Positions 2,355 to 52,030 of a stretch of DNA of 64,000 bases are shown here, one piece after another. Under the pieces are notes generated by a model. That model saw only the letters and a list, made by a program, of their open reading frames with translations, did no database searches and was not told where the DNA came from. A program made the translations under genes and the position numbers. How positions within the stretch are numbered: position 1 is the first letter of the stretch; each line of letters opens with the position of its first letter. The stretch is taken from contig OZ024742.1 of assembly GCA_964016885.1 (NCBI GenBank), positions 134,292,001 through 134,356,000 of the forward strand. Reading direction: 5' to 3'. The DNA is from Eledone cirrhosa (taxonomy: Eukaryota).

Positions 2355-2725
2355 CATATATATATGTGTGTGTGTGTGTATGTGTGCATATATATATATA
2401 TATATTCGTGTTTCCGTGTATGTGTGTATATATATATATATATTTAAACGGAAAAAAAATGAAACGAGATTTCATTTCCCACTCTTGGTGCGGCGGTTAC
2501 TTAAATATAAGTATGTACACGTACAGACATATATGTATACAGACGTGAAGTAGTATGTATATATATATATATATATATTCATACATGCACACATATATAT
2601 ATATGTACGTATGGATTCACCGAACATTTATTATAATGCTCGGTGAGTTTGTAAACAAACAACCCGTATTAAGCCGTAGTGTCCAGCAACCATCGTTGCT
2701 CGTTTGTTCAACACTGACAAAGGAA

Positions 2726-2766
2726 CACTGTACTAGTTTCAAGCTTATTAGCTATCATCGGCAACG
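2726..2766 (-). ncRNA. Hammerhead copy of the 430-nt unit (CCGATGA variant)
   Basis: Reverse complement: cgttg-CCGATGA-t-agct aata agct-t-GAAA-ctag-TA-cagtg. Confidence 0.65.
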
Positions 2767-3153
2767 TATACCTTCATGCCAGATTGTTGAACGTATATAC
2801 TTACCTTATGCATATTAACGGCTGAGTAGCCCAGTTTTCATATCGAGTGGGTTAAACGGCCGGGTGCACCGAAAACGATAAACGGAAAAAATGAAACGAA
2901 ATTTCATTTCCCACTCTTACTACGGCTGTTACTTAAATATAAGTATGTACATGTACATACATATATGTATACAGACGTACAGTAGTATGTATATATATAT
3001 ATACATACATACACACACATATATATATATATGTACGTGTCGATTCACCGAACATTTATTATAATGCTCCGTGTGTTTGTAAACAAACATCCCGTATTAA
3101 GCCGTAGTTTTCAGCAACCATCGTGCTCTTTTGTTCACGCTGAAAGAAGGAAG

Positions 3154-3192
3154 GCTGTACTAGTTTCAAGCTTATTAGCTATCGTCAGCAAC
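3154..3192 (-). ncRNA. Intact minimal type-I hammerhead ribozyme (430-nt unit)
   Basis: Reverse complement: gttg-CTGACGA-t-agct aata agct-t-GAAA-c-ta-g-TA-cagc; palindromic CUAG stem III; GUA triplet. Confidence 0.85.
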
Positions 3193-3672
3193 GTATACCT
3201 TCCTGCTAGATTGTTGAACGTATATACTTACCTGATGCATATTAACGGCTGAGTAGCCCAATTTGCATATTGAGTGGGTTAATCGGCCGGGTGCACCGAT
3301 AACGATAGACAGAAAAAATGAAACGAAATTTCATTTCCCACTCTTAGTTGGGCTGTTACTTAAATATAAGTATGTACACGTACATACATATATCTATACA
3401 TACGTACATATATATATATGTGTGCATGTATGTATATATATATATATATACATACTACTGTACGTCTGTATACATATATGTATGTACGTGTACATACTAA
3501 TATTTAAGTAACAGTCGTAGTAAGAGTGGGAAATGAAATTTCGTTTTATTTTTTCCGTTTATCGTTTTCGGTGCACCCGGCCGATTAACCCACTCGATAT
3601 GCAAATTGGGCTACTCATCCGTTAATTTGCATAAGATAAGTATATACGTTCAACAATCTGGCAGGAAGGTAT

Positions 3673-15060: not shown

Positions 15061-15096
<36 letters not shown>

Positions 15097-15249
15097 ATAA
15101 ATGCTCTGAAATAGCGATATATATGTGAGTATAGACATAGAATATTCGAAAATATTCTGTATGTTTATAATAAACATTTTGAAGACCTAATCGCTATAGA
15201 ATAGAATACGTCACGTATTACAATTAGATTCTCGATAAAAGCAAGGGAA

Positions 15250-15292
15250 GTAATCTACGCGTTTCATTCTTGTTAGAATTCATCAGGACCAC
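15250..15292 (-). ncRNA. Minimal type-I hammerhead; identical copies start at 15560, 15870, 16180, 16490, 16800 and 17110
   Basis: Reverse complement: gtggtc-CTGATGA-attct aaca agaat-GAAA-c-gc-g-TA-gattac. Confidence 0.92.
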
Positions 15293-17441
15293 ATATCCAG
15301 TGCTTTTATCGAGAATGACACAGCTAGAGACTTATAGAATACTTAGCTGTGTACTGGAACTGGTTTGAAAGAGCGGTTGCCGGTCCGGCAGAAATTAGAA
15401 ATTGGAATAAATGCTCTGAAATAGCGATATATATGTGAGTATAGACATAGAATATTCGAAAATATTCTGTATGTTTATAATAAACATTTTGAAGACCTAA
15501 TCGCTATAGAATAGAATACGTCACGTATTACAATTAGATTCTCGATAAAAGCAAGGGAAGTAATCTACGCGTTTCATTCTTGTTAGAATTCATCAGGACC
15601 ACATATCCAGTGCTTTTATCGAGAATGACACAGCTAGAGACTTATAGAATACTTAGCTGTGTACTGGAACTGGTTTGAAAGAGCGGTTGCCGGTCCGGCA
15701 GAAATTAGAAATTGGAATAAATGCTCTGAAATAGCGATATATATGTGAGTATAGACATAGAATATTCGAAAATATTCTGTATGTTTATAATAAACATTTT
15801 GAAGACCTAATCGCTATAGAATAGAATACGTCACGTATTACAATTAGATTCTCGATAAAAGCAAGGGAAGTAATCTACGCGTTTCATTCTTGTTAGAATT
15901 CATCAGGACCACATATCCAGTGCTTTTATCGAGAATGACACAGCTAGAGACTTATAGAATACTTAGCTGTGTACTGGAACTGGTTTGAAAGAGCGGTTGC
16001 CGGTCCGGCAGAAATTAGAAATTGGAATAAATGCTCTGAAATAGCGATATATATGTGAGTATAGACATAGAATATTCGAAAATATTCTGTATGTTTATAA
16101 TAAACATTTTGAAGACCTAATCGCTATAGAATAGAATACGTCACGTATTACAATTAGATTCTCGATAAAAGCAAGGGAAGTAATCTACGCGTTTCATTCT
16201 TGTTAGAATTCATCAGGACCACATATCCAGTGCTTTTATCGAGAATGACACAGCTAGAGACTTATAGAATACTTAGCTGTGTACTGGAACTGGTTTGAAA
16301 GAGCGGTTGCCGGTCCGGCAGAAATTAGAAATTGGAATAAATGCTCTGAAATAGCGATATATATGTGAGTATAGACATAGAATATTCGAAAATATTCTGT
16401 ATGTTTATAATAAACATTTTGAAGACCTAATCGCTATAGAATAGAATACGTCACGTATTACAATTAGATTCTCGATAAAAGCAAGGGAAGTAATCTACGC
16501 GTTTCATTCTTGTTAGAATTCATCAGGACCACATATCCAGTGCTTTTATCGAGAATGACACAGCTAGAGACTTATAGAATACTTAGCTGTGTACTGGAAC
16601 TGGTTTGAAAGAGCGGTTGCCGGTCCGGCAGAAATTAGAAATTGGAATAAATGCTCTGAAATAGCGATATATATGTGAGTATAGACATAGAATATTCGAA
16701 AATATTCTGTATGTTTATAATAAACATTTTGAAGACCTAATCGCTATAGAATAGAATACGTCACGTATTACAATTAGATTCTCGATAAAAGCAAGGGAAG
16801 TAATCTACGCGTTTCATTCTTGTTAGAATTCATCAGGACCACATATCCAGTGCTTTTATCGAGAATGACACAGCTAGAGACTTATAGAATACTTAGCTGT
16901 GTACTGGAACTGGTTTGAAAGAGCGGTTGCCGGTCCGGCAGAAATTAGAAATTGGAATAAATGCTCTGAAATAGCGATATATATGTGAGTATAGACATAG
17001 AATATTCGAAAATATTCTGTATGTTTATAATAAACATTTTGAAGACCTAATCGCTATAGAATAGAATACGTCACGTATTACAATTAGATTCTCGATAAAA
17101 GCAAGGGAAGTAATCTACGCGTTTCATTCTTGTTAGAATTCATCAGGACCACATATCCAGTGCTTTTATCGAGAATGACACAGCTAGAGACTTATAGAAT
17201 ACTTAATACGTGACGTATTCTATTCTATAGCGATTAGGTCTTCAAAATGTTTATTATAAACATACAGAATATTTTCGAATATTCTATGTCTATACTCACA
17301 TATATATCGCTATTTCAGAGCATTTATTCCAATTTCTAATTTCTGCCGGACCGGCAACCGCTCTTTCAAACCAGTTCCAGTACACAGCTAAGTATTCTAT
17401 AAGTCTCTAGCTGTGTCATTCTCGATAAAAGCACTGGATAT

Positions 17442-17484
17442 GTGGTCCTGATGAATTCTAACAAGAATGAAACGCGTAGATTAC
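17442..17484 (+). ncRNA. Minimal type-I hammerhead in the inverted arm; second copy at 17752-17794
   Basis: gtggtc-CTGATGA-attct aaca agaat-GAAA-cgcg-TA-gattac; predicted cleavage after A17478 and A17788. Confidence 0.92.
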
Positions 17485-18138
17485 TTCCCTTGCTTTTATC
17501 GAGAATCTAATTGTAATACGTGACGTATTCTATTCTATAGCGATTAGGTCTTCAAAATGTTTATTATAAACATACAGAATATTTTCGAATATTCTATGTC
17601 TATACTCACATATATATCGCTATTTCAGAGCATTTATTCCAATTTCTAATTTCTGCCGGACCGGCAACCGCTCTTTCAAACCAGTTCCAGTACACAGCTA
17701 AGTATTCTATAAGTCTCTAGCTGTGTCATTCTCGATAAAAGCACTGGATATGTGGTCCTGATGAATTCTAACAAGAATGAAACGCGTAGATTACTTCCCT
17801 TGCTTTTATCGAGAATCTAATTGTAATACGTGACGTATTCTATTCTATAGCGATTAGGTCTTCAAAATGTTTATTATAAACATACAGAATATTTTCGAAT
17901 ATTCTATGTCTATACTCACATATATATATATATATATATAAAGTACAGTGAATTTTTTGAAATTTAATTTGAAACTTTTTTCTTATTTGCTAAACCTGGA
18001 TTTTAGTCTTCAAATTTATTATTATTACTATATATATATATATATATATATAGTAATAATAATAAATTTGAAGACTAAAATCCAAAGAGGGCCCGATAAG
18101 GATAAATATATATCAAATATATAAGAACCGTAGAGCAA

Positions 18139-26601: not shown

Positions 26602-28226
26602 TCATCATCATTCGTCGATTACTGTCGAGATGATGGATCTCACTCTCATGCCCCAGAATTCCCTGTCCCCCATCGCTGCCCCCAGGTCCTGTCTACTGAT
26701 TCCCGTATCCCTAGAGATAACGTCAGGGAATGACAGCTTCCTACTCCTAGTCAGGCCGGAGTCAGGGTGCCAGAGCAAGAGAGCGGATATGATTTCATTG
26801 CTGGCACGGTGACAGTGGCCAGCAAATTGAGCTTTCCGGGATTTTAGAAGTGCAGAGGCTCGAGGGAGTTTGCCATAGATTTTAGACAAGGTGGGATGTC
26901 GTTTCCAGGATAGGTTTTTGCACTCTCATTAAGAGGCGGGTATATGTGCCATCCAATCTTCTCTCAAGTTGTTATGTTAGTGACCAAGTTTCGGATCCAT
27001 AAAGTAATATGGGTTTAATGGTTGCTTGGAATATTTCCCGTTTTAGCTTGTTGGTAAGTTGAGATGTCCATATGGCGTGCATGTCATTGCACGCTGGCCA
27101 TGCCATACCCTTCCTGGTTAGAAAATCTTTTTTGGAGGAGGAGATATATGAGCCAAGATACTTGTAATCTTCCACCTGCTTAAGGGTGGTACCATTAAGG
27201 GTTCTGATGGGGTAGTTTGGGCTGTTTGCGCATCTGTTCACATACTCAGTCTTGGATTCTTTGAGGTACAATCCAACACAGTTGGACGCTTGCTCTAATT
27301 ACTTCAAAAGACTCTCAGCATTTTCCAGTGACCGACTGATCAATGTGATGTCGTCAGCAAAGTCGGTGTCGGTCAAGTATTATGCTGGGTAGCGTGAGCT
27401 TCTCCTAGGCTGTAGTTGGTATCCCCTATCCTGAATCCTATCCACAGACATGTGCAAAAGATAATCCACAACAATGATAAATAGATACGGAGTAAGGGTA
27501 TCGCCCTGTAAAATTCCAGCGAGGATTGAGAAAGGTGGTGTTTTCCCATCTGGGGTCAGGACAGTTGATTTGGTATCTGTATACATTACACGTATGGCCG
27601 CGATGATTTTATCAGGAATCCTATAGATGTTGTAGAATTTCAAACATCTCCGACCTGTCAACTGAGTCGAAGGCTTTTGAAAAATCAACAAAGATGAGTG
27701 CAAGGTCTAGATTGCGGTTTTGGGACTCCTCTATAAGTCGGCGAAGGCAGAGAATCTGGCTAAGTGTTGATCTATCTCTCCTAAATCCATTCTGGTTGTT
27801 ACGAAGGATTGGCTCAAGAAATGGGATTAAGCGGTTAAGAAGAAGCTTGTTGTATATTTTTGCAGCAATTGCCATGAGACAAAATCCTCTATAGTTGGTG
27901 GCTAAAGAAAGATCTCCTTTTGGGGGCATAGGGATAATGTGAACTGCATGCCAGACGCTAGGTGGTTTATTGGTCTCGAAAGTATGGTTACATAAGTTGA
28001 GCAAAAGGATGTGGAAATGCTCATCCTTCCAAATCAGGGTAGGTATATTATCCGGCCCAAAAGCTTTTGAGGCTTTGAGCTGTTTGATGGCTTCTTTGAG
28101 CTCAGGCATGGTGAAAGGAGAGGTGTTGATTCCTAAAGGCTCTGAAACCTGCCCGGATGGCAGTTGATAGTTATCAGGGAGTCTGGCCTTTTTCTCTAGA
28201 AGGTTTTTAAAATGAACAGACCAATT

Positions 28227-28230: not shown

Positions 28231-28288
<58 letters not shown>

Positions 28289-28293
28289 TATAA

Positions 28294-28349
<56 letters not shown>

Positions 28350-28422
28350 CATTATGAAGAGAGAAGAAACATTTAGATATAATTAGTAATAAAATGTATC
28401 ATACCTAAACTGCTCCTAGATT

Positions 28423-28510
28423 CCTCGACTACGTAGTTTCGTGGCATAAACAAAAACAATACATCATAAAGATATAGAGTCTTTGCGAGGTCTGCCGACT
28501 TATCAAGAGG
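28423..28510 (-). ncRNA. Hammerhead with U3-A8 core variant
   Basis: Reverse complement of the motif at 29101-29188. Confidence 0.75.
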
Positions 28511-29100
28511 ATACCTCGTTTTACTAGCTTCAAGGACGCGTCTACATGACGTGAGAAAGAATCCCAAAAGGCGGAGGGGGAGATAATCACGCGATATAAC
28601 GGTCGAGAAACAGAGCTAAGCCTCTTATAACCCCGAAGAAAATACCACGGAGGCGGAGGGGGTATTTATATCGAAGCCGTATAAGAGGCGGTGAAGGAGG
28701 CGAGAAGTATGAGTAATGGCAGCTTTCCAGCAGTCACCACACTTCAAAGATTACTCGACCAGAGGGAGTTATGAACAATATATTTAGAAACACACAGATA
28801 CATGCGGACACACACATATACATGAATGCATCCACACCCAACGTGAGTTAATGGTGCCAACCTTACCGATGTTGCTCAATGAATGACTGGGACAGACCAA
28901 TCCGGTTGAATTAGACTGAACCAGTATCAGAGTTAAAAATACATTATGAAGAGAGAAGAAACATTTAGATATAATCGGGGTTATAAGAGGCTTAGCTCTG
29001 TTTCTCGACCGTTACATCGCGTGACTATCTCCCCCTCCGCCTTTTGGGATTCTTTCTCACGTCATGTAGACGCGTTCTTGAAGCTAGTAAAACGAGATAC

Positions 29101-29188
29101 CCTCTTGATAAGTCGGCAGACCTCGCAAAGACTCTATATCTTTATGATGTATTGTTTTTGTTTATGCCACGAAACTACGTAGTCGAGG
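29101..29188 (+). ncRNA. Hammerhead with U3-A8 core variant and long stem II
   Basis: cctc-TTGATAA-gtcggca...tgccac-GAAA-ctacgtag-TC-gagg; predicted cleavage after C29184. Confidence 0.78.
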
Positions 29189-29417
29189 AATCTAGGAGCA
29201 GTTTAAGTATGATACATTTTATTACTAATTATATCTAAATGTTTCTTCTCTCTTCATAATGTATTTTTAACTCTGATACTGGTTCAGTCTAATTCAACCG
29301 GATTGATCTGTCCCAGTCATTCATTGAGCAACATCGGTAAGGTTGGCACCATTAACTCACGGTTGGGTGTGGATGCATTCATGTATATGTGTGTGTCCGC
29401 ATGTATCTGTGTGTTTC

Positions 29418-29502
<85 letters not shown>

Positions 29503-32142: not shown

Positions 32143-35100
32143 AGTTGCATTTATCTTGCTTTATGTTCATACAAGTTATCACCAAGTCACAACCAGTGAC
32201 CTCAAGAGACAACAAGGTCCGCCATGTTCAAGAAAGAACATACACACTCACACATGCATCTTTAGTGTTTAGACTTGTGATGTACTTATATTGACAGAAT
32301 CTTCCTTAGTATATGGGCAGTTCCCATTAGTACTATCTTTTGTATTTCTCCTATACGCGGGTTTCCTGCGATTTGCGATAAGTAATCATTAGACCCCTTA
32401 GGTATTATTCCCAGAGCGCCTACAACCACTGGTATTGTTTTAGTTCTCAATTTCCACATTTTTCCAATTTCTATCTCCAGGTCCTTATACTTGCTCAATT
32501 TTTCAAATGTTTTTATAGATACATTCTTGTCTATTGGAACATACATATCAATTAGCAGGCATACCCTCTTTTTAAAGTCCTTCAATATTATACCAGATCT
32601 ATTTGATCTATTTTTCGGTCTGTTTGGATGCTTAAGTTCCACAAAATTGGGATGTGATCGTTTTCAGGTATGGGAGGTGGTTGATGCTCCCACCAATTCT
32701 TTTGATGGGGCAGGTAAAAATGCTTACCCATTATCCAATGTATGTATTGTGCAGCTCTGTCATGCCTGTTTAGGTATTCGGTTGGAGCTATAGGACTGCA
32801 CATTGAAAATATATGGTCAATGGTATCTGGTTGTTTTTTGCATACACGGCATCATGGGCTGCATCCATTTGTTATTATGTTGGCTTGGTAATTTTTTGTT
32901 GGCAGACACTGATCTTATGCTGATATAATCAGTCCTTCAGTCTCCGATTTCAGTCCAGAGGATGCCAACCACTGATGGGTTAAAGTGTTGTCAACATCAG
33001 GATTGTTAGCTCGCTCTGGGTATTTTCCATACAGAGGCTTTTCTTGCCATTTCTTAGCCAGTTTCTGTAGCAGTTCTTTCTTTGCAGTTACTTTTACCTG
33101 CTTGCTTTTTCTGTGTTTTCCATTTCAGCAGTAAATGGGACTTCTGAAATGTGTAGTCCATTACTGTATCTTTGCGCATCTTTTGTAATGGAATATGATC
33201 TTTTGATGCTTTCGTGTTTCAAAATGAGTTTGATCATCCAATCATGTGATTCCCTTAGATATGTAGATAATCCAATTGTTGCAGTTTTCAACGCAATGTC
33301 TAACTGGATTAACCCACGTCCTCCTTCTTTCCTAGGGAGATATATTCTATCTATATCTGCCTTAGGGTGATGCATTCTGTGCATGGTCAAGAATTTTCGA
33401 AATTTTGTATCGAGCCTACGGATCTCTGTGCTTGACCAGTTGATGACATTGTAACTGTAGGTTAATACTGGTATGGCAAGCGTGTCTATGACATCGATCC
33501 TATCCCTTGCATTCAATTCCGTTCTTAAGATTGCTCTTACTCTGCGGTAACATTCCTTCCTTAACCTTTCCCTCATTGTCGAGTGCTTGATTCCGTCTCC
33601 TTCACAAACAGCTAGATATTTGTAAGTTTTTTCTTGATCAAGTTCTCTTATCACGTTCCCCCGATCAAGATTTATGTCTGAACTCTTCAGCAGCTTTCCT
33701 CTGGTGAACGTTGCTTTGGCGCATTTATCTAGTCCAAACTCAATTTTAATGTCATCACTGAGCTGCTCCACAGTGGATAATAGCCCTTGCAATTGTTCAT
33801 CATTTTTTGCAAATAGTTTCAGGTCATCCATGTAGAACAAGTGATTAATGGTTTTGTCATAGACTTTATATCCATGTTTTGTTTCATTGAGCATTTTACT
33901 TAATGGTATAAGTGCGATGCAGTATAAAAGCGGTGATAAAGAGTCACCCTGAAAAATTCCACAATTAATATTAACTTCTCCAGCTTCCAGTGTTTCACTA
34001 TCAAAAGGAGTGTCGTTTTCCATGTCTTCATACTGAATGACAAAAACCTCCTGATAACGGGGGATATTTTGAAAATCTCTAAACATTTTCAATCCAACTG
34101 TGTGGCAAACTATCGAATGCTTTTTTATAATCTATCCAAGCAATCGATAGCTTTTTGTGTCTTTTATGACAATCTTCCAGTATCATTTTGTTAACTAAAA
34201 GCTGATCCTTACAGCCATATGAGCCTCGTTTACACCCTTTCTGCTCAATGGGACATAGGTCATTTGTTATCAGGTGGTCATATCTGTATTCAGTTAGGAC
34301 TGATGTTAAAATTTTATATATTGTGGTCAAGCAAGTTATCGATCTGTAATTTTTTGGATTGTTTGTCTCATCATTCTTCAGAAGCAGGAATGTAATGCCG
34401 TTAACTAGCCATGATGGTATATTTCCTGGCTCCTTAACTATTTCATTGTAAAGTTGGGCTAACAGCTCATGAGACTCTCTGAAGGCATTTATCCACAATT
34501 TTGTATGTTATCTTTTCCTGGGGATTTCCATTTGCTGGTTTTTCTTAGAGCCAAGCGCAACTGTTCAACTGTTATGTTTTCCCATATTTGTTCCTCAAGG
34601 TGAGCTGTATCTTTCATTTGTATGTCTATCCATGGGGCATGTATGTTATGAACTTTTCTTCGGCCCAGATCTTTTCCCATAATTCTTGCACTTCCTCCTT
34701 GGGTGGTATTGATTTAGCAGTTATTGTTGACTTACCAATTTTTCTGTAGAAGTTTCTTTGGTTGTTTTTGAACATATTATTGTCCTTATAGAATCTAGAT
34801 CGTTTTTCAAAGCGCCTTATACGAGCAGCTTTGGCCGACACTTTTTGCTTGATTATTTCTATCAGCATGTCTATGTCACTTGTTGATTTTATACTGTACT
34901 TTCTTTTCAATTTTCTAAGTTTAGTGTGTTTAACATGTTCACCTACTTTATAGTTTGTTAACATTTCTATGTCAGATTGGAGAGGGTTTATTTGGCGATT
35001 GATGTCCTCTTGCCAAGTAGATTTCTTGTGGGAATTCCTTTGTTTTTTCATCTTCACTCCACATAAGTGAGTGGTGACTTTAGCCGATGCATAATAGAGA

Positions 35101-36032: not shown

Positions 36033-39000
36033 GAATGCTATAGTTGACGGAGGCTCGGCTCTGTAAGGTATTGTAAATTTTGAACACTATAACAATTGTA
36101 AATTGTTTAAAACTTTAACGAACTTGTAGGCAAAAACACCCTCCTCCTCGTGAGAGGGGTCTTTCTGCCCGTTATTTGGCCCTTCGGGGTTAAATAACTG
36201 CTTATTGGGGTTTTGTACCCAATATTTATTTTAAACAAAAAAAAAAAAACAACATGGCTACGAAAAAGAAATTTCATAGGTAACTCCCACTCATTCCGTC
36301 TTCTTCTTCCTCAATCATCACTACAGCAGAGAGAGGATTGTCCCCCCCCCCTTCTTTAAATGTGTCTCTCTCCCTCCCTTCTCTTTCGCAAGCGACGAAA
36401 GAAAAGAAAAGTCTCGTGCAAAGCGTGCACGGTTTCTCCACGACGACGACGACAGCGACGAAACAGGTGTGCGGGAAATACGAAAACCCAGTTCATTCGT
36501 CTGACGTCAGGAATAATAGCAGTAGCAGCCGTAATAACAACAGCAACAGTGACAATGAAAACAACAGTAGCAGCCGCAACAGCATCACCAGCAGCATAAA
36601 CAACAACAGCATTAGCAACAGCAACACCAACAACAACCACAGCAACAGCGGCGGAGGCAGTAGTCGTAGTACCTGCAGCAACAACAAAAGTAACAGCAGC
36701 TCTGACGACAACAACAACAACAGCAGCAAAGAAAAACCAATCTCATTTGCAGGTATTGCGAAAAACTTGGAAACAATCCTCATAACAAATGAGGAATTAG
36801 AGGAAGCGAAGAAGATGGTGACAAAGACTGGACACCGAGCAATCTGCAAGGCAGCGGAAAAAAAAAAAAATTTTTTCGAAATCCAACAGCACTGTACGGT
36901 CACGTACCTTACAGTAAGTACAAAATCCCGTAGGGTGGAAAGAGCCACAGACGCTCAAATACAAAAAGCCTTGGGGTCTGTGTGGCAGCGGAAAACGCAC
37001 ATCACCCGAGGCAAAACATATGCCACCGTAGACGTACTTTTTGCCACACCCCAGGAGGCAAAGACCCAATCCGGAGTGACCCTAAGGAGCGAGGAAATGG
37101 TTTGGTGCCCTCCTACTGCTGGCAAAAAATAGTGAGGGTCAAACTGACCCACGTCCCCCCCGGGATGGTCCTTTCTTGGCTGGCCGCGTCTGTCCTCGTC
37201 GGAATCGAGGACAAAACAACTGTACTGCAAGTACAGGAAAAAGTAAGAGGAGATTGGGTCGGCACCTCCATTGAGATGCTAATCCAAACCATCGAAGCTA
37301 TCCCGGATGTGATAGACTTCGATAACGGCACTCAACTGCCCATAAGTTTTGAGGGAAAACGCCCGAAATGCTTTCGCTGTGGATCGAAGACTCACCTCAG
37401 GGCCTTCTGCAACGAGAACACCCTGAGAAAGGAGAAAACCCCCTCCTTCCGAAACCGGCTCCACAGCTACCAGCAACAGGACAAGCGGTTACCAGGAACG
37501 ATAGGTCCGTGGCACCCATACCCACGCCACGGAAATCAAAAACAGCAGCAGCAGTGGAAATATTAACAACAACAACAGCAATATCAAATGCAGCTGCAAC
37601 AGAGACTCCAGTGCAAACATCACCAACAACAACAAGTGAAAGAGTGGAGCTGGTACCCCTCCCCGACCTCACAGAATCAGACATGGAGTGTGAGGTGGGA
37701 GAGGGATGGCAAAAGGTCGTAAGAAGGCACAAACGCAGAAGCAGCGCATCGTCGCCTTTGAAAAGGGAGGAAAGAAATAAGAAAAGGCTAAAGTCTACTG
37801 CAAAGAGACCCACAGCAGCAACACCACCAACACCATCACCATCCACACTAGCACCACCATCACCACCGGCGACAACCCCACCGCCAACAACACCTTCAAC
37901 ACCACCACCACAAGCACCAACATCGCAAACACAACAACAAAACACACACACCCAGCAAAAACGACAAGAAAATAGCAGAAATAGTTATGCGGGCGTTGAC
38001 GTGGGCCATCGTCAACAACAAGTGGTGGTTTGCTCTGAAAAGAGCGATTAGAATAGAATCCATTAGGTTTAATAAGGCTTTAGCAATAGAGAAAAATAGA
38101 GCAGAGGGAGAACTAGTTAGAAAATTAGACGAGGCGCTTAGCAAAGGCATCGCGACCGACGTGCTTGCGGCGAAACTGGTCCTTGACCAATTCTTCAATG
38201 CAAAGCACGAAGGTTGCGTTGTCAGGGCAAGGGGGGTGCGTGCTCTCAGACACGAGGGGACGAAAGCCGTTCAATGGGCCCGAGTGGCGGAGGCGCGTCG
38301 TGGCAACAAAGCCACGATCCGGTCTTTGGTGGACAACGACGGGCGCATGATACTCGATCCCGGGCAAATGTATGAAGCTTTTCAGCGACACTTCGCTCAG
38401 CTGTTCGGGGGCAGCGGTGGGCCGGGTCGAGGGATGGACTTTAGTGTCTACCTCGACGGATTGCCGCGGCTCTCGGCCACTGAGGCGAAGTGTTGCGAAA
38501 AGCCGATAACTGCCGCTGAAGTAAGGGAGGCATTGACTGGCTGCACAAGGGGTAAATCGCCTGGTTTGGATGGTCTGCCCTATGATCTTTACGTACAGAT
38601 GCCAGACTTGTTCAGAGGCCTCTTAGCGGACGTCTACTGCAACTGGCAACAGAACGCGAGAATTCCCAGTTCTGTGAGCCGAGGAGCGGTGGCACTGCTG
38701 AGAAAGGATCCTAACAAGGGGGATAACATAGATCATTTCCGGCCCATAACTCTGCTAAACACAGAGTTCAAGATTTTGGCCAAGGTGCTAGCAAAGAGGT
38801 TGGCGCTTGTCGTTGGTTGTCTGGTGGGAGAGGCGCAGTCATGCGCCATTCCCGACACATCCATCCACGACAACCTCCACCTCATGCGATACATCGTAGA
38901 GAGGGTAGCTAAGGAACCTGGCACGGGTGGGTCCTTGATCAATTTAGATCAGTCGAAAGCTTTCGATAGGGTCGACCATCGTTACCTAGCGGCAGTCCTG

Positions 39001-40857
39001 AGGGCGGCTTGCTTTGGGCCCGTCTTCAGAGGCTGGATCGCTGCCATGCACAGCGACATCTGCTCTGTGGTGAGAGTGAACGGTCACCTGTCGGAACCGT
39101 TCAACATCATGCGCTCGGTCCGCCAAGGATGTCCCCTCTCGTCCCTCTTGTACGTATTGACTCTCGGGCCATTACTGCACAAACTGGAGACGTTGAGGGG
39201 CGTCCTGCGCGAACTAGGATGCGGAAGATCCGTGTCAGCGTATGCGGACGATGTCACCGTAGTGGTGTCGAACGCCAAACACATCGAGGCGATCGGCACT
39301 ACAATAAGAGAATACGAAGCGGTGACAGGAGCAATGATCAACCAGGAAAAGTCAGTGGGCCTGCAGCTCGGCACCTGGAGAGGAAGGTCCATGCCGTCCA
39401 ACAGCGTCGTCGGACGCTGGACGGACGGACCGGTTAAATTGCTAGGGGTCTGGTTCGGTCCGGACCTCCAGACGGACAAAAACTGGGACGAGGTGACGAG
39501 CAGGGTGGCTTCTCTCACCCAGAAATGGGCGGAGAGGAAGCTATCCCTGAAAGATCGAGCGGAGGTTGCTAACGCGTACATCGCGTCTGTCATCTGCTAC
39601 CGCCTGACCGTCGTACCTTGTCCTAAGCCTCGCCTGACTGCGCTGGAGCGTTTGCTCTTTCGCTTTTCGTGGAAGGGACGCGCTCCGATGGTCAGGCGGT
39701 CCATCTGTTGTCAACACCCGCTACGTGGAGGGCTGGGCATGCCGTGGCTGATAATGCGCAGGCACGCGCTCAGGCTACGACATCTCCACCTCTTCCTCGA
39801 CGGTGATCAGGTGTGGTCGCCGTTTGATAGACACGTATTTCCCCAGCTCGTTTCCTTGACGGAGCTGCAGTCCTGGGTCAAGCGAAGACCGAGAGGGAGC
39901 GCCTAAAGACTGGAATGTCTTCAGGCGCTCACAGCCCTCGACCAATCGGGCAATGTGATGGGTGGAAACTCCACCTCGGCGTTCTATAGAGGATTAGTGG
40001 AGGGGAAGAGCGACGACGTACTTGGGGAAAATCTAGGCGTCGACGAAAATCAACTAGCCAATCTCTTCGGAAGAACTTTCGGGCCAGGGCCTATGGACAA
40101 CTTCCAGAAATCTCTGGCCTGGCAGTGCTACCGAGGAGCCTTACCAGTTCGGGATATACTCTACAGGCATGGAGGTGCCGTCAGCCGGGCATGTCCGAGA
40201 TGCGCGCAGGGCGACGAAACCGTCCTGCACGCACTCGTCCAGTGTCCGAAAATTGCTGACTTGTGGGTTTATGTCGAACACCTGCTGTCGCGTTTAGGAC
40301 GGATCCGGCTATCATCTGAGTCCATCGTGAGGATTGCCCCGCCCTCCTCCTTTAGCCGGGAAGGGCAGGCAGTTTTTATCTGTCTGGTGGCCATGGCGAA
40401 AGAGATAGTATGGTGGACACGTTTGAAAGGGCTGAAGACGAGCACTTACCTCTTCGGTGATGCTCTGATTGACTTTTTCAAATTTCATTTGAAAAGGAAA
40501 ATCAGAGTAGAGAGGGAAATGCTCTCTTCCCAGTATTTACGAGAAAGATGGGTGAGAGAAGCAAGAATGGCCCGAGTGAATGGGCCTACTCTGAGTATGT
40601 ATCTGTAAATTAAAGGTGGAAAACTGGGAGAGGGCACTTGCCTTGGTGGTCAGGGTCATTTTGGCTTTTTACTTGGCTTTCTCCACAAATGTCCCTCCGA
40701 AGTCTCCCCCCTATTGGGGAATTTTTCATTGTTATTTTTTGTCACACCCTCTGTTTTTTGTTTTTTACACGCAGAAATGCCCATTTGTACCGTCCTGTTT
40801 TGTCCTGCACTGTCCTTAATGTCTACTTTATGTAAACCCTTGTGGTTAATAAAGAAA

Positions 40858-40901: not shown

Positions 40902-43900
40902 GAATGCTATAGTTGACGGAGGCTCGGCTCTGTAAGGCATTGTAAATTTTGAACACTATAACAATTGTAAATTGTTTAAAACTTTAACGAACTTGTAGAC
41001 AAAAACACCCTCCTCCTCGTGAGAGGGGTCTTTCTGCCCGTTATTTGGCCCTTCGGGGTTAAATAACTGCTTATTGGGGTTTTGTACCCAATATTTATTT
41101 TAAACAAAAAAAAAAACAACATGGCTACAAAAAAGAAATTTCATAGGTCACTCCCACTCATTCCGTCTTCTTCTTCCTCAATCATCACTACAGCAGAGAG
41201 AAGATTGTCTCTCTCCCTCCCTTCTTTAAATGTGTCTCTCTCCCTCCCTTCTCTTTCGCAAGCGATGAAAGAAAAGAAAAGTCTCGTGCAAAGCGTGCAA
41301 GGTTTCTCCACGACGACGACGACAGCGACGAAACAGGTGTGCGGGAAATACGAAAACCCAGTTCATTCGTCTGACGTCAGGAATAATAGCAGTAGCAGCC
41401 GTAATAACAACAGCAACAGTGACAATGAAAACAACAGTAGCAGCCGCAACAGCATCACCAGCAGCATAAACAACAACAGCATTAGCAGCAGCAACAACAA
41501 CAACAACCACAGCAACAGCGGCGGAGGCAATAGTCGTAGTACCTGCAGCAACAACAAAAGTAACAGAAGCTCTGACGACAACAACAACAACAGCAGCAAA
41601 GAAAAACCAATCTCATTTGCAGGTATTGCGAAAAACTTGGAAACAATCCTCATAACAAATGAGGAATTAGAGGAAGCGAAGAAGATGGTGACAAAGACTG
41701 GACACCGAGCAATCTGCAAGGCAGTGGAAACATTTTTTGAATCCCAACAGCACTGTACGGTCACGTACCGTACAGTAAGTACAAAATCCCGTAGGGTGGA
41801 AAGAGCCACAGACGCTCAAATACAAAAAGCCTTGGGGTCTGTGTGGCAGCGGAAAACGCACATCACCCGAGGCAAAAAATATGCCACCGTAGACGTACTT
41901 TTTGCCACACCCCAGGAGGCAAAGGCCCAATCCGTAGTGATCATAAGGAGCGAGGTAATGGTGTTGGTGCCCTCCTACTGCGGGCAAAAAATTGTGAGGG
42001 TCAAATCGACCCCCCCCCCCACCGAATGGCCCCTTCTTGGCTGGCCGCGTCTGTCCTCGTCGGAATCGAGGACAAAACAACTGTACTGCAAGTACAGAAA
42101 AAGTTAGAGAAGATTGGGTCGGCACCTCCATTGAGATGCTAATCCAAACCAACCAGGAGTGCATCGAAGCTATCCCGGATGTCATAGACTTCGATAACGG
42201 CACTTAACTGCCCATAAGTGTTGAGGGAAAACGCCCGAAATGCTTTCGCTGTGGATCGAAGACTCACCTCAGGGCCTTCTGCAACGAGAAAACCCTGAGA
42301 AAGGAGAAAACCCCCTCCTTCCGAAACCGTCTCCACAGCTACCAGCAACAGGACAAGCGGTTACCAGGAACGATAGGTCCGTGGCACCCATACCCACGCC
42401 ACGGAAATTAAAAACAGCAGCAGCAGTGGAAATATTAACAACAACAACAGCAATACCAAATGCAGCTGCAACAGAGACTCCATTGCAAACATCACCAACA
42501 ACAACAAGTGAAAGAGTGGATCTGGTACCCCTCCCGACCTCACAGAATCAGACATGGAGGGTGAGGTGGGAGAGGGATGGCAAAAGGTCGTAAGAAGGCA
42601 CACACGCAGAAGCAGCGCATCGTCGCCTTTGAAAAGGGAGGAAAGAAATGAGAAAAGGGTAAAGTCTACTGCAAAGAGACCCACAGCAGCAACACCACCA
42701 ACACCATCACCACCCACACTAGCACCACTATCACCACCGGCGACAACCCCACCGCCAACAACACCTTCAACACCACCACCACAAGCACCAACATCGCAAA
42801 CACAACAACAAAACACACACACCCAGCAACAACGACAAGAAAATAGTAGAACCACACCCCACCCCCAGAAAAACAAATGCACGGCAATAAATACACACAA
42901 CAAGAAACTAATGACTTACATAATTGAACACACAGACATTTCACAACACGACTACATAATACCAGCACCAATCAAAACACCAACTAACATAAGACTGCTA
43001 AAAATAGCACAGAAACAATACACAAACATTAAAACGAAATTCCCCAACGCAGTTGGTGATTTCAGGGACCTAGGAGGAACTATCAATCGAAGAGTATATT
43101 CAGACATTCTCATAGAAGAGCCGACGAACAGCCGAAGGGACGATTCAACGGTCCCTTCACCAGACGATCAAGTGAAAAGGGATGTAAAAACCATCCCTCC
43201 TCTACCAAAAGTACGGTAAGTGGTCTTTCCCATCTTTTCCACTCTATTTTAAACATGACCTCACTAAGAATAGGCAGCATAAATGCGCGTGGCTTGGGGT
43301 TGTCATGGGAGCAGGGTCACCTGCTCAACGACCTCAGGTCACTAAACATAGATGTAGTGGCCATCAGCGAGACCAGAATCTCCGAAGCACGGGCCTTCGC
43401 ACCGACCTTCGGCGGCTACGATGTGTACGCATCTCCCAGCCGTTCTGGATCGGGGGGCGGAGTTGCTGTGCTTTTTCGGAGAGGTTTGAATCTCGCCATA
43501 CGGGCCATCTTCCTGGACCCAGAGGGTAAGCTGGTGGTGCTGGACGTGACCAGCGGAGACGGGCAAGCTTTCAGGCTAGTGGCCGTCTATGCCCCGACAG
43601 GAGCAGGGAGGCCTGATTTCTTCCGGCGTCTGGAGACCTTTCTTGGAACGTCCCGCTCTTTAGTGTTAGTGGGCGACTGGAACGGGATCTTAGATGCACG
43701 GTGGGACTGTGTGGGATTAGCGGATAGGGGTGGAGGGTGCAAGAGCCTCACCAACCTGCTCAGGCGTTTTGAACTGTCTGACAGGTACCGATTGGATTTC
43801 CCGAATGTGCCAATGTGGACTTGGCAAATCGTATAGGGTCATCCAGATCATATCTAGATAGAGTATTTTGTAGGGAAATAGATAGGTCTAGCATAGGCTG

Positions 43901-45674
43901 TCCACAATTCAAGATAGTCAGCTACACGGACCACAAATTCGTGATCTGTGTGCTTGAATTAGATAGGCTTCATAGACGAGGACCCGGCTACTGGAAGCTA
44001 AACGCGTCCTTACCAGCGCGCAAGGCCTACAGAGACCGGATTAGCGAACTAGTTAAGCGGGCGTTGACGGGGGCCATCGTCAACAACAAGTGGTGGTTTG
44101 CTCTGAAAAGAGCGATTAGAATAGAATCCATTAGGTTTAGTAAGGCTTTAGCAATAGAGAAAAATAGAGCAGAGGGAGAACTAGTTAGAAAATTAGACGA
44201 GGCGCTTAGCAAAGGCATTGCGACCGACGTGCCTGCGGCGAAATTGGCCCTTGACCAATTCTTCAATGCAAAGCACGAAGGCTGCGTTGTCAGAGCAAGG
44301 GTGCGTGCTCTCAGACACGAGGGGACGAAAGCCGTTCAATGGGCCCGAGTGGCGGAGGCGCGTCGTGGCAACAAAGCCACGATCCGGTCTTTGGTGGAAA
44401 ACGACGGGCGCATGCTACTCGATCCCGGGCAAATGTGTGAAGCTTTTCAGCGACGATTCGCTCAGATGTTCGGGGGCAGCGGTGGGCCGGGTCGAGGGAT
44501 GGACTTTAGTGTCTACCTCGACGGACTGCCGCGGCTCTCGGCCACTGAGGCGAGGTGTTGCGAAAAGCCGATAACAGCCGCTGAAGTAAGGGAGGCAATG
44601 ACTGGCTGCACAAGGGGTAAATCGCCTGGTTTGGATGGTCTGCCCTATGAACTTTACGTACAGATGCCAGGCTTGTTCGGAGGCCTCTTGGCGGACGTCT
44701 ACTGCAACTGGCAACATAACGGGAGAATTCCCAGTTCTGTGAGCCGAGGAGCGGTGGCACTGCTGAGAAAGGATCCGAACAAGGGGGATAACATAGACAA
44801 TTTCCGGCCCATAACTCTGCTAAACACAGAGTTCAAGGTTTTGGCCAAGGTGTTAGCAAAGAGGTTGGCGCTTGTCGTTGGCGGTCTGGTGGGAGAGGCG
44901 CAGACATGCGCCATTCCCGACAGATCCATCCACGAGAACCTCCACCTCATGCGATACATCGTAGGGAGGGTAACTAGGGAACCTGGCACGGGTGGGTCCT
45001 TGATCAATTTAGATCAGTCGAAAGCTTTCGATAGGGTCGACCATCGTTACCTAGCCGCAGTCCTGAGGGCGGCTGGCTTTGGGCCCGTCTTCAGAGGCTG
45101 GATCGCTGCCATGCACAGCGACATCTGCTCTGTGGTGAGAGTGAACTGTGACCTGTCGGAACCGTTCAACATCATGCGCTCGGTCCGCCAAGGATGTCCC
45201 CTCTCGTCCCTCTTGTACGTATTGACTCTCCAGCCATTACTGCACAAACTGGAGACGTTGAGGGGCGTCCTGCGCGAACTAGGATGCGGAAGATCTGTGT
45301 CAGCATATGCGGACGATGTCACCGTAGTGGTGTCGAGGGAAGTGCTCTCTTCCCAGCATTTTGTTGAAAAATGGGTGAGAGAAGCAAGTATGGCCCGAAT
45401 GAATGGGCCTACTCTGAGTATGTGTCTGTAAATTAAAGGTGGAAAACTGGGAGAGGGCACTTGCCCTGGTGGTCAGGGTCACTGTGGTCTTTTAATGGGC
45501 TTTCTCCACAAATGTCCCTCGGAAGTCTCCCCCCTATTGGGGAATTTTTCTTTGTTATTTTATTTCATCCTCTGTTTTTTTTACACGCATAAATGCCCAT
45601 TTGTACCGTCCTGTATTGTCCTGTACTGTCCTTAATGTCTACTTTATGTAAACCCTTGTGGTTAATAAAGAAAA

Positions 45675-48438: not shown

Positions 48439-51400
48439 TCCTTGAATCTCAGTCATTGATGTTGGTTAACTGGAAAGTCCGTTGGATTGAATATCAAGCC
48501 ACTACCTGCAGCCTCAGATATTCAGGACGTATCGGAGGGTTCTTGCTGTTCCAAGCAAGCATGCCTTTTGAAGCGTTCCAAAAAGCGTGAAGGGGCCGAT
48601 TTTCTTTAACCATCCCTGGAAACCTTTGGAGATAGTCCCCAGTGCGCCTATGACAATCGGGATCACTTTTCACCTCCCACTTTAGGTCCTGGTATCGGTT
48701 AATTTTCTCCCTCTCCTTCTCTTGCACTCTCGTGTCGAACGGGCAGGCCACATCCACAATCAGGCACGATCTTTTTTCTTTGTCCACAACCACCAGGTCA
48801 GGTCTATTGTGTTCCAGTTTTTTGTCCGTCTGTATCCTAAAATCCCACAGCACCTTCACCTGACTGTTCTCCATCACCGCCTCTGGCCTATGCTCATACC
48901 ATTTCTCAGAATGTGGTAGATTGTTTACTTTGCCCAGGTGCCAGTGGATCACCCTGCCCATCACATCGTGTCTCCAGCCCTTATAGTGGGTCTGGGCTAG
49001 GTGTTTACACTCGGACACAATGTGAGCCACAGTCTCCTCTCTCTCTCCACAGATCCTGCACAGTGGGCTAGCCTCCTCCTTGTAGATATGGTGCTTCAAC
49101 CACTTCGTTTTGAGGGCCTGCTCCTGCGCAGCCATTAGCATTCCTTCTGTAGCCTTTTTGAGGTCTCCTCTTCTCAACCAGTTCCATGTCTGTGGATCTC
49201 TAAATTCAGTTTTCTCAAAGAAGGTACTATGAAGGGATTTTCCCTTAAGGCTGCTCTTCCTCCTTGATGTTATTTCCTCCTTGGACATCCCCTGGCCTAC
49301 TGTCCTCTCCTTCAGTACAGTTCTGAGCATTGGCTCCTTACTATAGGTCACGTATTTGTATAGGTTGTTTTTCTCCATCTGGACACAGTCCTCTATGCTG
49401 ATAAGACCTCTTCCACCCTCAGATCTTCTTAGGTAGAGTCTATCGACATCACTCCTCTTGTGGAACATGTTGTAGATAGTCAATAGCTTCCTAGTCTTCC
49501 TATCCATTTCTTTTTGTTCAGCAACATTCCATCTCAGAATTCCCGCACTGTACCTAATAATAGACACAGCTCGGGAATTTACTGCGCTTATGGCATTTCT
49601 GCTGTTCAGATGTGACTTCAATACGCTCCTTACTCTCCGAATGTATTCAGTTCTTAACAATTCCTTCATTTTTTTGTTCTTTATGCCATCAGCCTCCAGA
49701 ACGCCCAAGTACTTGTATCCTTCCTCAGAGTCAATTTCCTTTATCATCTCACCTGTTGGTATCTGGATCCCGTTACTTCTGCTCAACCTACCCCTCTTCA
49801 TCACAATGACTCCACATTTACCAATACCAAACTGCATACATATATCACTGCTGAAAATACGGACAGTGTCAACAAGCACATCCAACTCCTTCTCACTTTT
49901 CCCGAAGAGCTTAAGATCGTCCATGAAGAGGAGGTGATTGTTGGTAAGCTCTCCCCTTCCCAACTTGTATCCTGCTCTCACTTTTCGCAGCATAATGGTC
50001 AAGGGCATCAGGGCAGGGACAAACAACAGAGGGGACAGGCTATCTCCCTGGAAGATACCTCTATTGATCTTCACGCTTCCCAAGGATACTCCAGTTGATG
50101 TCAACTCTGTCTCCCAGGACCCCATACTCCTGCCCAGCAACTGTCTGATGTTATCTGCCACCCTGAAGACCTCCAGGCTTTTGGTGATCCAGGAATGAGG
50201 CACCATGTCAAATGCCTTTCTGTAGTCTATCCATCCCATGGCAAGATCAGTGTGTCTCCTCCTGCAATTCCCCATTACCATCTTATCAATAAGCAACTGG
50301 TCCTTTGTACCACGTGACTTCTTTCGGCATCCTTTCTGTTCGTCCGGTAACAAGTTGTTTGTGTGGAGGTGATGGTAGATTTCCTCAGACACAATGCTCG
50401 TCAACAGTTTCCACATTACGGGCAGACATGTGATAGGTCTATAGTTGGTAACATCATTACCCTTGATTCGGTCTTTCATTATCAGAACTGTGGTACCTTT
50501 TGTCAACCACTCTGGCACCTCACCCGACACCAAGCAGTCATTGAACATGGCCGTCAGCTTCGGGTGGAGGGATGTTAAATGTTTAATCCAATACCCCTGC
50601 ACACCATCTGGGCCTGGTGATTTCCAGTTGGTTAGTTTTTTGGCTTGCCCCTTAAGAGTTTCAACTGTGATACTCAAATCAGTCTGTTGTTGTGCCTTCT
50701 CACCGATCTCCCTCTGTACTGTCTCAATCCACCCTGCCTGGGCATTGTGTCTAACATCCTGCTCCCATATTCCTCTCCAGAATGTTTTAGCTTGTTCCGC
50801 CCCAGGGATCAAGTCGTTGCCTCTTTCTTTCCCCTCAAGCTGTCCAAACAGCATCTTCTGGTTGTTGTCGAACATGCGGTTCTGTTTATACTGACTGACT
50901 CTGTTCTCGTATCGCCTGATTTTGGCACTCTTTGCTACAATGCGTTGCTTCAATTTCTCTATGATAATATTTAGCTTTTTACTCCTAGTTTTGTATTTTA
51001 TTTCCTGTCTATTTTTAGTGCCTATGTTTTTTAGTGTCCCATTCAGTAGTGACTCAAGCTTTCCTATGTCATTTCTCATTTGCCCGATTTGCCCACTCAG
51101 TCGCTTCTTCCACCACGGCTCTGCTCTTTCTTGTCTGTTGTTTCCTCTCGCTTTTATACCAAGTAGTTTCCTCACCGTATTTGCTGTTGCTTTGAGGATA
51201 TTGTTGCACTGGTGAAGACTCCTCGCCTCAAGGTATGGGATGACTTTGTTTACCTTAGCTGTTGTTTCTTTTAACTTTTTCCTGTCTACAAATCTTAGGT
51301 TCATAGGTCTCCCACTATCATTGTTCAATTCATCTACCACTAGATTTAGGATGTCAACCGAATCTTGTCCTAGCCCGTCAGCATTCATCTCCTCAGTGGC

Positions 51401-52030
51401 CGTATCTCTGTTCCAGGTATTATTTATCTCAGTATTCAGATCATTGTCTGCTTCGGGTGGTTCCTCCGTTCTCAGGACCTCCTCACCTTCATTTCCCACT
51501 GGCTCGCTTGTCTGGCATACTACACCCGCCATCTCCAAGCCATTCTCTCTGCTCAGTTCCTCCAGTTCCAGCTCGCTTATCCACCCATTAGTTCTTATTA
51601 CCCGAGCCTGCCCGGCCAATTTTTGTTCATCTAATTTAAATAAACCAATCTCGTTCCAGATGTTATGCATCCGTCTCCTGTAGCCCCTCTCCTTGGGGTT
51701 ACTTTTCAGGTAGCATTGCATAACAGTTCTATTCAATTCTTTCGTCCAGTTGGTTCTGGCCCCTTTCCTTCTTCTTCTTCCTCCAACATCAGCAGTATTT
51801 GGTTGACAGTCAGGTTCCTGCTGCTGAGCCAGGGGGCACCTGTTGGGTGAGAGTCTGTCACATGACGTTCTAGTCTCCATTTCACCGTTATTCGAACTGT
51901 TTATGTTCGATATTTAAACACTCTTATCGAGGATTGGCGAATGTATGTTTACATAGCCATCTGTGGATCCGCCATCCCACTTGGCCCTTGTGTGGCATTA
52001 TCACCACGCTGTATACGAACACACATAAAC
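48439..52030 (-). mobile_element. R4/Dong LINE family A, near intact
   Basis: Single long ORF; (TAA)n at the 3' end. Confidence 0.93.
48494..51880 (-). CDS. Retrotransposon RT, CCHC and restriction-like endonuclease protein (1128 aa; extreme C-terminus frameshifted)
   Basis: WKSPGPDGV, IDYRKAFD, GIFQGDSLSP, LFMDDLKL, CRICGEREETVAHIVSEC, RHD and RPDLVVVD..VDVACP..KINRY. Confidence 0.9.
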   Translation of the reverse strand: METRTSCDRLSPNRCPLAQQQEPDCQPNTADVGGRRRRKGARTNWTKELNRTVMQCYLKSNPKERGYRRRMHNIWNEIGLFKLDEQKLAGQARVIRTNGWISELELEELSRENGLEMAGVVCQTSEPVGNEGEEVLRTEEPPEADNDLNTEINNTWNRDTATEEMNADGLGQDSVDILNLVVDELNNDSGRPMNLRFVDRKKLKETTAKVNKVIPYLEARSLHQCNNILKATANTVRKLLGIKARGNNRQERAEPWWKKRLSGQIGQMRNDIGKLESLLNGTLKNIGTKNRQEIKYKTRSKKLNIIIEKLKQRIVAKSAKIRRYENRVSQYKQNRMFDNNQKMLFGQLEGKERGNDLIPGAEQAKTFWRGIWEQDVRHNAQAGWIETVQREIGEKAQQQTDLSITVETLKGQAKKLTNWKSPGPDGVQGYWIKHLTSLHPKLTAMFNDCLVSGEVPEWLTKGTTVLIMKDRIKGNDVTNYRPITCLPVMWKLLTSIVSEEIYHHLHTNNLLPDEQKGCRKKSRGTKDQLLIDKMVMGNCRRRHTDLAMGWIDYRKAFDMVPHSWITKSLEVFRVADNIRQLLGRSMGSWETELTSTGVSLGSVKINRGIFQGDSLSPLLFVPALMPLTIMLRKVRAGYKLGRGELTNNHLLFMDDLKLFGKSEKELDVLVDTVRIFSSDICMQFGIGKCGVIVMKRGRLSRSNGIQIPTGEMIKEIDSEEGYKYLGVLEADGIKNKKMKELLRTEYIRRVRSVLKSHLNSRNAISAVNSRAVSIIRYSAGILRWNVAEQKEMDRKTRKLLTIYNMFHKRSDVDRLYLRRSEGGRGLISIEDCVQMEKNNLYKYVTYSKEPMLRTVLKERTVGQGMSKEEITSRRKSSLKGKSLHSTFFEKTEFRDPQTWNWLRRGDLKKATEGMLMAAQEQALKTKWLKHHIYKEEASPLCRICGEREETVAHIVSECKHLAQTHYKGWRHDVMGRVIHWHLGKVNNLPHSEKWYEHRPEAVMENSQVKVLWDFRIQTDKKLEHNRPDLVVVDKEKRSCLIVDVACPFDTRVQEKEREKINRYQDLKWEVKSDPDCHRRTGDYLQRFPGMVKENRPLHAFWNASKGMLAWNSKNPPIRPEYLRLQVVA

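Follow-up and report, generated by a model that had tools for sequence, protein, structure and literature searches.

Positions 28346-29426 of a 64,000-nt stretch of the Eledone cirrhosa genome (GCA_964016885.1, contig OZ024742.1, positions 134,292,001 to 134,356,000; hereafter, the window) probably hold a single insertion of a young, high-copy, noncoding retrozyme with a U3-A8 hammerhead core, copied into a (TA)n microsatellite by the reverse transcriptase (RT) and GIY-YIG endonuclease of a Neptune element. The 592-nt element is a new family of a kind that is already known, the non-LTR retrozymes, and the U3-A8 core itself is also known. Its added value lies in start sites that could be mapped, a helper candidate, and the apparent capture of a splice donor. 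In the literature consulted, neither the 592-nt family nor fixed double ends in retrozymes are described.

TRF places (TA)n target microsatellites on the left (28233-28346) and right (29421..29502) of the insertion. Between them, self-alignment resolves two 5'-truncated arms that meet head to head at 28975 with an overlap of 1 nt. The left arm (28346..28975, RNA sense on the minus strand) contains one unit (u1-592, 28346-28937) and an exact 38-nt restart of that unit (28938-28975). The right arm (28975..29426, RNA sense on the plus strand) reads from u291 to u1 and then from u592 to u433. Its first part, 28975-29265, is identical to 28636-28346 at 285 of 291 positions, and beyond the unit junction, 29266-29426 differs from 28937-28778 by 1 substitution and 1 indel. 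The 3' ends of the left arm (28346-28347, minus strand; site 1) and right arm (approximately 29425, plus strand; site 2) are putative RT start sites. The 161-nt stretch between the two fixed 3' ends (29265..29425, plus strand) would be the equivalent of the Penelope tail, but is longer. Each arm carries a single hammerhead, and both point outward. A preliminary description of this DNA had reported the 592-nt unit and the inverted arm running through the unit junction, and both are borne out by the sequence and self-alignment. The two hammerheads, however, are not separate copies, as assumed there, but belong to the 98%-identical arms of one insertion.

Upstream of the left-arm hammerhead, a GC-richer segment on the minus strand (28560..28700) contains two GGCGGAGGGG boxes and a long hairpin predicted in the circular fold. 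This segment is a candidate internal promoter; in Penelope elements, promoters are reported to be located in the pLTR.

A sequence and motif scan shows that both hammerheads are of type I and read CCUC-UUGAUAA-stem II-GAAA-CUACGUAG-UC-GAGG. The family-type copy lies in the left arm (28423..28510, minus strand; U3 at 28506, A8 at 28501), with a predicted cut after C28427. Its counterpart in the right arm (29101..29188, plus strand; U3 at 29105, A8 at 29110) comprises stem I (29101-29104/29185-29188), the UUGAUAA core (29105-29111), stem II with a hairpin insert (29112-29170), GAAA (29171-29174), and a palindrome (29174-29183), and is predicted to be cut after C29184 (C17). Apart from the U3-A8 swap, the core is complete, with G5, A6, A9, G12-A14, A15.1-U16.1, a GUC cut site, and three stems. 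The replacement of C3-G8 by U3-A8 and the long insert in stem II had both been noted before, and the sequence confirms the former in both arms and the latter as a 46-nt hairpin on a 6-bp stem with one bulged C. The stem III palindrome is likewise present, but measures 10 nt including A15.1 and U16.1, rather than 8 nt as first described.

Folding predictions for the left-arm hammerhead give -26.1 kcal/mol under the hammerhead constraint versus an MFE of -27.2 kcal/mol (difference, 1.1), and in the predicted fold its stem I is lengthened to 9 bp with a single bulge. The right arm has two private changes, at 29097 and 29100, of which the latter disrupts the predicted stem I extension. When folded on itself into a hairpin, stem III would be unstable (+1.5 kcal/mol), and when paired between two molecules as a palindromic dimer duplex, it would be stable (-12.9 kcal/mol); these predicted energies fit the dimer cleavage known from Penelope hammerheads. 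Dimer-cleaving Penelope hammerheads are reportedly also treated by Lunse et al., whose work may cover more core variants. Because stem III is unstable as a hairpin and position 29100 is changed, the monomeric fragment 29095-29195, put forward earlier as a cleavage substrate, could falsely appear to be noncleaving. The single-strand MFE of 29085-29205 is unremarkable (z, -0.94), and the hammerhead core fold was absent from the RNAalifold consensus of 10 copies, in which 1 of 28 predicted pairs had a two-sided change.

At the gathering threshold, Rfam produced 0 matches across the whole window. The U3-A8 core alone does not account for this, since an array with a 310-nt unit and a canonical C3-G8 hammerhead in the same window was also missed. 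U3-A8 hammerheads already have their own published search descriptor. This 310-nt array (15091-17927) is two-armed (6.8 and 2.3 copies, 100% identical), is embedded in (TA)n, and has a short palindromic stem III. A further tandem, with a 427-nt unit (2.3 copies, 90%), lies beside (TA)n at 2445-3419.

The preliminary description had taken the U3-A8 change as covariation implying selection for cleavage on the strength of the two arms, which are in fact products of one event. Genome-wide, 6080 cores keep U3-A8, 14 are changed at position 3 alone, and 13 are changed at position 8 alone, compared to 9 for the tolerant control position 7. With 0 C3-G8 doubles among the genome-wide core matches, covariation within the family was rejected: U3-A8 is a fixed ancestral swap with neutral decay. 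Uncoupled changes at positions 3 and 8, which had been named as grounds for dismissal, do occur in 27 copies, but at the background rate, and neither refute nor support selection. Between families, the 3-8 pair does covary, being C3-G8 in the 310-nt array and U3-A8 in both the 592-nt family and the Neptune family L061 (see below). That the swapped pair retains activity agrees with Perreault 2011 (PMC3088659), in which U3-A8 is found in nature and active in vitro. About 1,300 matches to U3-A8 Penelope hammerheads are reported from Schistosoma mansoni (Cervera and de la Pena 2014, PMC4209133).

Selection on the ribozyme is instead visible as low variation in the core and stems, for which the statistics are modest and come from copies that share ancestry. 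Among sampled copies, 1 of 42 core and stem columns is polymorphic versus 122 of 550 elsewhere; when limited to the hammerhead columns outside the search pattern, the count is 1 of 24 (p 0.039). Contigs of a second sample vary at >=1% at 10 sites, 0 of them within the 42 core and stem columns (p 0.05, again with shared ancestry). Core and stems are also almost unchanged in subfamilies at 82-91% identity.

The exact 19-nt core pattern has 6093 matches in the 3.0-Gb genome versus 0 for the reversed control, and the motif is therefore not a chance occurrence. A DNA search of the same genome returned at least 119 matches, mostly 95-100% identical, with 40 scored of 1995 candidates. The family amounts to roughly 3,500 insertions. 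Most family copies are 92-99% identical, with older subfamilies at 82-91%, and six-frame translation of one natural two-unit tandem revealed no long ORF. Arms reach 4.9 units (L145) and 4 units (L026). We examined 29 best-match loci and a second set of 55 insertions, which were drawn from the first 100 pattern matches by their order along the chromosomes; this second set requires the exact 5' half of the core, and short one-armed copies are missed in it. L003 and L117 were dropped as duplicates, L094 and L095 were merged, and two arms cut by locus edges were removed. Because of a separate old fragment or an AT-run misalignment, L106 and L010 were excluded from the end, polymorphism, and private-allele counts and from the 25-site agreement, and L017 was excluded from the end, polymorphism, and private-allele counts, with its first 59 columns left out of the 25-site agreement.

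In 83 of 86 sampled arms, the RNA-sense 3' end falls at one of two sites, u1-3 (43 arms) or u423-436 (40 arms), which correspond to site 1 and site 2 of the window copy. The two fixed ends are 161 nt apart, with site 1 located 80 nt after the predicted cut site, and the 3' ends nearly always adjoin (TA)n. In contrast to these fixed 3' ends, the 5' ends are scattered. Loose ends at the same two sites were found in contigs of an independent run. Twenty-nine of the 55 insertions in the chromosome-order set are two-armed, and 27 of these have one arm per site, as do 9 of the 10 two-armed insertions in the best-match set. Across both sets, one arm per site is found in 36 of 37 classifiable insertions (p about 3e-10), and the window copy obeys the same rule. 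The layout is the footprint of a two-ended Penelope insertion, with a tail delimited by two fixed 3' ends, truncation on the 5' side, and an inverted 5' arm, as in a nonautonomous Penelope-like element. In Penelope, the tail separates one RT start site from the other, with cutting and extension of both target strands (Frangieh 2024, PMC11167929); inverted 5' copies and a (TA)n bias are typical of Penelope-like elements (Craig 2021, PMC8557442). The strict one-of-each rule suggests a single asymmetric complex rather than two independent events.

The same end structure bears on two other origins. The first is a SINE-like element moved by a LINE (AP-endonuclease) RT through L1-style twin priming. 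The window is rich in LINE-type RVT_1 frames (6 of 8 scanned: 27621-28220, 33094-34131, and 48497-51913 on the minus strand; 37852-39903, 43782-45428, and 56165-56995 on the plus strand), and twin priming produces 5' inversions. In the retrozyme, however, the inverted arm begins at a fixed position on the 3' side of where the other arm starts and repeats the same sequence, a layout not known from twin priming. Moreover, the copies showed neither a poly(A) nor a 3' end in common with LINEs, and Neptune copies in the same genome have the same two-site layout, leaving this origin very improbable. One of the RVT_1 frames spans 1139 aa with a hint of zf-RVT, and the window as a whole is mostly transposon sequence.

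The second is a satellite or minisatellite that arose a single time out of a Penelope pLTR, with later spread by unequal crossover at the DNA level; such a local-amplification route is discussed by Li, Clavereau, and Pollet (2026, 10.64898/2026.07.22.740005). Head-to-tail units are indeed nearly identical within arrays, and one locus pair, L114 and L117, is duplicated. Against this stand thousands of dispersed short insertions in (TA)n with two fixed 3' ends and random 5' ends, as well as an inverted second arm starting at the other fixed site, which crossover of DNA does not predict. We regard this origin as extremely improbable. In the duplicated pair (G000:C1:19.62 Mb), the identical two-armed insertion occurs twice, 2.5 kb apart, reflecting a local duplication or an assembly repeat.

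The genome contains 10,597 GIY-YIG candidates, of which 150 were scored and 50 loci were examined in search of the driver. Among these, a young family consisting of L061 and nine further GIY-YIG frames stands out as the best candidate, which we favor with slight confidence. L061 has a pLTR-ORF-pLTR layout with a 938-aa frame encoding RT, a Cys-rich linker, plus a GIY-YIG domain at the C-terminal end, and the N-terminal part is split over frames in this copy. On domain and pLTR features, it would belong to the Neptune clade as characterized by Craig 2021 (PMC8557442). The hammerhead in its pLTRs has a U3-A8 core and a stem III that is palindromic, and its 3' ends lie in (TA)n, 77-80 and 144-147 nt after its cut. 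Two members, L070 and L072, have one arm from each 3' site. The proposed pairing of retrozyme and L061 is based on this geometry and the shared core variant. At site 2, an 11-nt TTTCT(A)AATAT is shared within the last 25 nt (p 0.036); the two elements do not align significantly after the cut (p 0.99), in the tail (p 0.84), or at site 1 (p 0.34), and they do not align elsewhere. No pLTR parent emerged among the 50 GIY-YIG loci, where alignments were confined to low-complexity matches and one retrozyme copy inside L056. Given that the 50 loci come from 150 scored of 10,597 candidates, the driver could also be a different Neptune.

In the anole element, the distance from the cut to the first start is 85-92 nt (+26 to +111-118), and both a template trimmed to +20 and hammerhead mutants were still active in insertion (Frangieh 2024, PMC11167929), so a required ruler role is disfavored. 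Three other Neptune families (L078, L080, and L064) have hammerhead-like UUGA.AA (U3-A8) starts that are degenerate or unclear, compared to the clean motif in L061. Short L061-family fragments lie within about 1 kb of retrozyme copies at L011, L090, L095, L129, L138, L152, L154, and L168, several of them in the same (TA)n runs. At L124:1960-2130, the 5' end of a retrozyme arm adjoins a very small Neptune insertion that has two arms, without intervening (TA)n, reflecting either a chimeric event or a deleted target run.

A 5' splice-donor-like GTATGA, conserved in the family, is located 22 nt after the cut site (29207..29212, plus strand). In the fetched loci, which partly overlap, GTATGATA follows the hammerhead motif in 217 of 231 occurrences, and no intron-less genomic copies spliced at this donor were seen. 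A 1396-nt contig of run X4, which is not recorded as RNA, matches 29167-29205 and then continues into other sequence. This nonretrozyme part has a single exact match on C22, directly behind an AG acceptor and preceding a single-exon 363-aa frame of the Anp1 family (glycosyltransferase). About 3.7 kb upstream of that exon, a retrozyme copy is present in sense orientation (copy and gene: L168:5625-6264 and L166:1497-2725, G000:C22:8.276-8.281 Mb), and the join coincides with the GTATGA donor. Contig and genome show a difference just past the splice junction, with 30 letters seen beyond the join. The contig is best read as a spliced transcript that would start in or before the retrozyme copy and span the cut site uncut; alternatively, it may be a processed DNA copy. 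The retrozyme copy appears to supply a spliced 5' exon to a host gene, hinting at a possible route from retrozyme to host promoter. Over window positions 28979-29179, the same run yields one contig (depth about 3) with 40 differences over about 200 nt, and T>C predominates among the changes in the run (38 places), which may represent A-to-I hyper-editing of antisense or fold-back RNA.

The nature of the copied RNA was assessed from the arms themselves. They pass through the hammerhead cut site and extend up to 4.9 units, which upholds the earlier proposal of a circular or multimeric template insofar as it must exceed one unit; the inverted arm alone, however, is no proof of a circle. Five places with 5' ends fall at the cut site versus one at a matched control, which is not significant. 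In a 20-nt scan, 1 of 32 distinct places was exactly at the cut (a visual count over the 100 overlapping matches listed first, out of 308), with about 2-3 expected per position by a rough uniform estimate. A cleaved linear monomer was rejected as the main template, since the cut shows no accumulation of 5' ends and the arms run through it, although a small excess there is possible.

Within insertions, units differ by 0.5% in the same arm (155 of 31,190 columns) and by 0.6% between opposite arms (145 of 23,835 columns), compared to a median of 3.1-3.5% to other loci. The nearest other locus is about as close (median, 0.4%), and much of the identity within insertions is therefore subfamily identity. 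At 25 common polymorphic sites, units of one insertion agree in 804 of 814 comparisons, where random copies would differ at 46%. Thirty sample-private alleles are common to all covering pieces in 18 of 76 insertions, and 14 of these span opposite arms, in 9 of the 76. Together, these patterns show one template lineage per insertion and are compatible with a repeatedly read circle. As a circle, the monomer is predicted to fold at -174.6 kcal/mol (z, -6.2 versus 40 shuffles). The joined units found in contigs likewise occur as DNA tandems. We lean toward a circle as the template; an uncut multimer is possible but less probable, and jumps between monomers are improbable.

The Penelope-driven insertion could also have used an uncut, linear read-through multimer, with the hammerhead as a slow or protein-dependent pLTR relic, a reading that we hold to be doubtful. 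In 8 insertions, units are mosaic at common polymorphic sites: 10 within-insertion mismatches toggle common alleles, where about 4-6 would be expected (p 0.006-0.11), and a single circle explains these less well than multimers of mixed units, switching between templates, or subsequent conversion. In addition, 5' ends are not enriched at the cut, the chimeric X4 contig spans the cut site intact, and tandem sources of 3-5 units are present. The anole enzyme inserts in vitro without hammerhead cleavage, its main substrate being uncut RNA (Frangieh 2024, PMC11167929). Counting against the preferred reading, 8 of 9 predicted retrozyme dimers from Xenopus are reported not to cleave in vitro. On the other hand, the core and stems are less variable than the rest of the unit. 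Furthermore, with 5' truncation alone, arrays would never exceed their parents and units would drift, in contrast to L145, in which nine pieces over two arms have 0-2 differing sites and share four alleles absent from the other sampled loci.

For the preferred Neptune-driven copying, the following sequence of events can be proposed. A tandem copy would be transcribed in the hammerhead sense, for which one spliced contig offers support. Two hammerheads of the multimer would pair via the 10-nt palindrome and cut, and the monomer would be ligated to a circle, as in known retrozymes. The Neptune enzyme would then cut (TA)n on both strands, and cDNAs would be primed at site 1, which lies 80 nt beyond the cut in the 3' direction, and at site 2, 161 nt further, presumably through short AU-rich microhomology. 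Both cDNAs would extend 5'-ward through junctions and cut sites, halt at random, and join head to head, resulting in the layout that is observed.

A more far-reaching and unlikely reading makes the 592-nt unit a satellite, in the form of circular RNA, of a U3-A8 Neptune, from which it would have kept the geometry without alignable helper sequence: a hammerhead with the same core variant, a first start exactly 80 nt downstream of it, and a second start that ends in the shared short motif. If true, both sites of one circle would be occupied by a dimeric enzyme, which would travel around the circle from either end of the (TA)n break. The hammerhead would not only cut but also contribute to the signal by which the enzyme loads, and the helper lineage that a retrozyme rides would be recognizable from U3-A8.

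The literature proposes that Penelope enzymes mobilize animal retrozymes, probably via circles, and states that the mechanism is still to be shown. For this open question, the retrozyme and L061 form a matched pair. Both start positions are known at single-base resolution, an asymmetric complex of two enzymes is what the one-arm-per-site rule predicts, and the genome offers a young family that is autonomous and has the same geometry, suiting reconstitution like the published anole assay.

Metazoan retrozymes are now proposed to be nonautonomous Penelope derivatives, and on the tested features, the 592-nt element appears to belong with the metazoan non-LTR retrozymes: its head-to-tail units each contain a type I hammerhead and have no coding capacity. 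Like them (PMC7229834), it is a noncoding tandem of low GC with one type I hammerhead per unit, present as dimers to short multimers. Its 592 nt fall within their 51-972 bp range, and a Penelope dependence has been proposed for them as well (PMC7229834; 10.64898/2026.07.22.740005). Unlike these, the 592-nt family has a U3-A8 core with a 46-nt stem II insert. The accounts of metazoan retrozymes that were consulted do not mention double 3' ends that are fixed, insertion into (TA)n, or insertions with two arms, and "inverted" and "microsatellite" have 0 occurrences in the main text of Cervera and de la Pena 2020 (PMC7229834). In contrast to the Xenopus retrozyme families, there is no alignable pLTR parent among the 50 GIY-YIG loci.

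Among hammerheads, the motif resembles that of Schistosoma Cercyon in its U3-A8 pair, long stem II, and short stem I (PMC4209133; PMC3088659). As in Penelope hammerheads (PMC4209133), the palindromic stem III implies dimer cleavage, and motif pairs lie 100-700 bp apart on opposite strands. It differs from the Penelope and Cercyon motifs in its location in a tandem noncoding unit, its longer palindrome (10 nt), and the lack of an extra nucleotide between A9 and G10.1. Compared to EN+ Penelope-like elements, the retrozyme is without an ORF and has a tail of 161 nt rather than 30-40 nt, and its ends share AU microhomology with the target, in contrast to the anole enzyme, for which homology was not needed to start (PMC11167929). 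Nevertheless, it shares with EN+ Penelope-like elements (Neptune) and Chlamys MRC1 the partial tandems, 5' truncation, inverted 5' copy, AT-rich targets, and a tail between two RT starts, which is optional there (PMC8557442; PMC11167929), and the 80 nt from its cut to the first start are near the +26 to +111-118 of the anole element (PMC11167929).
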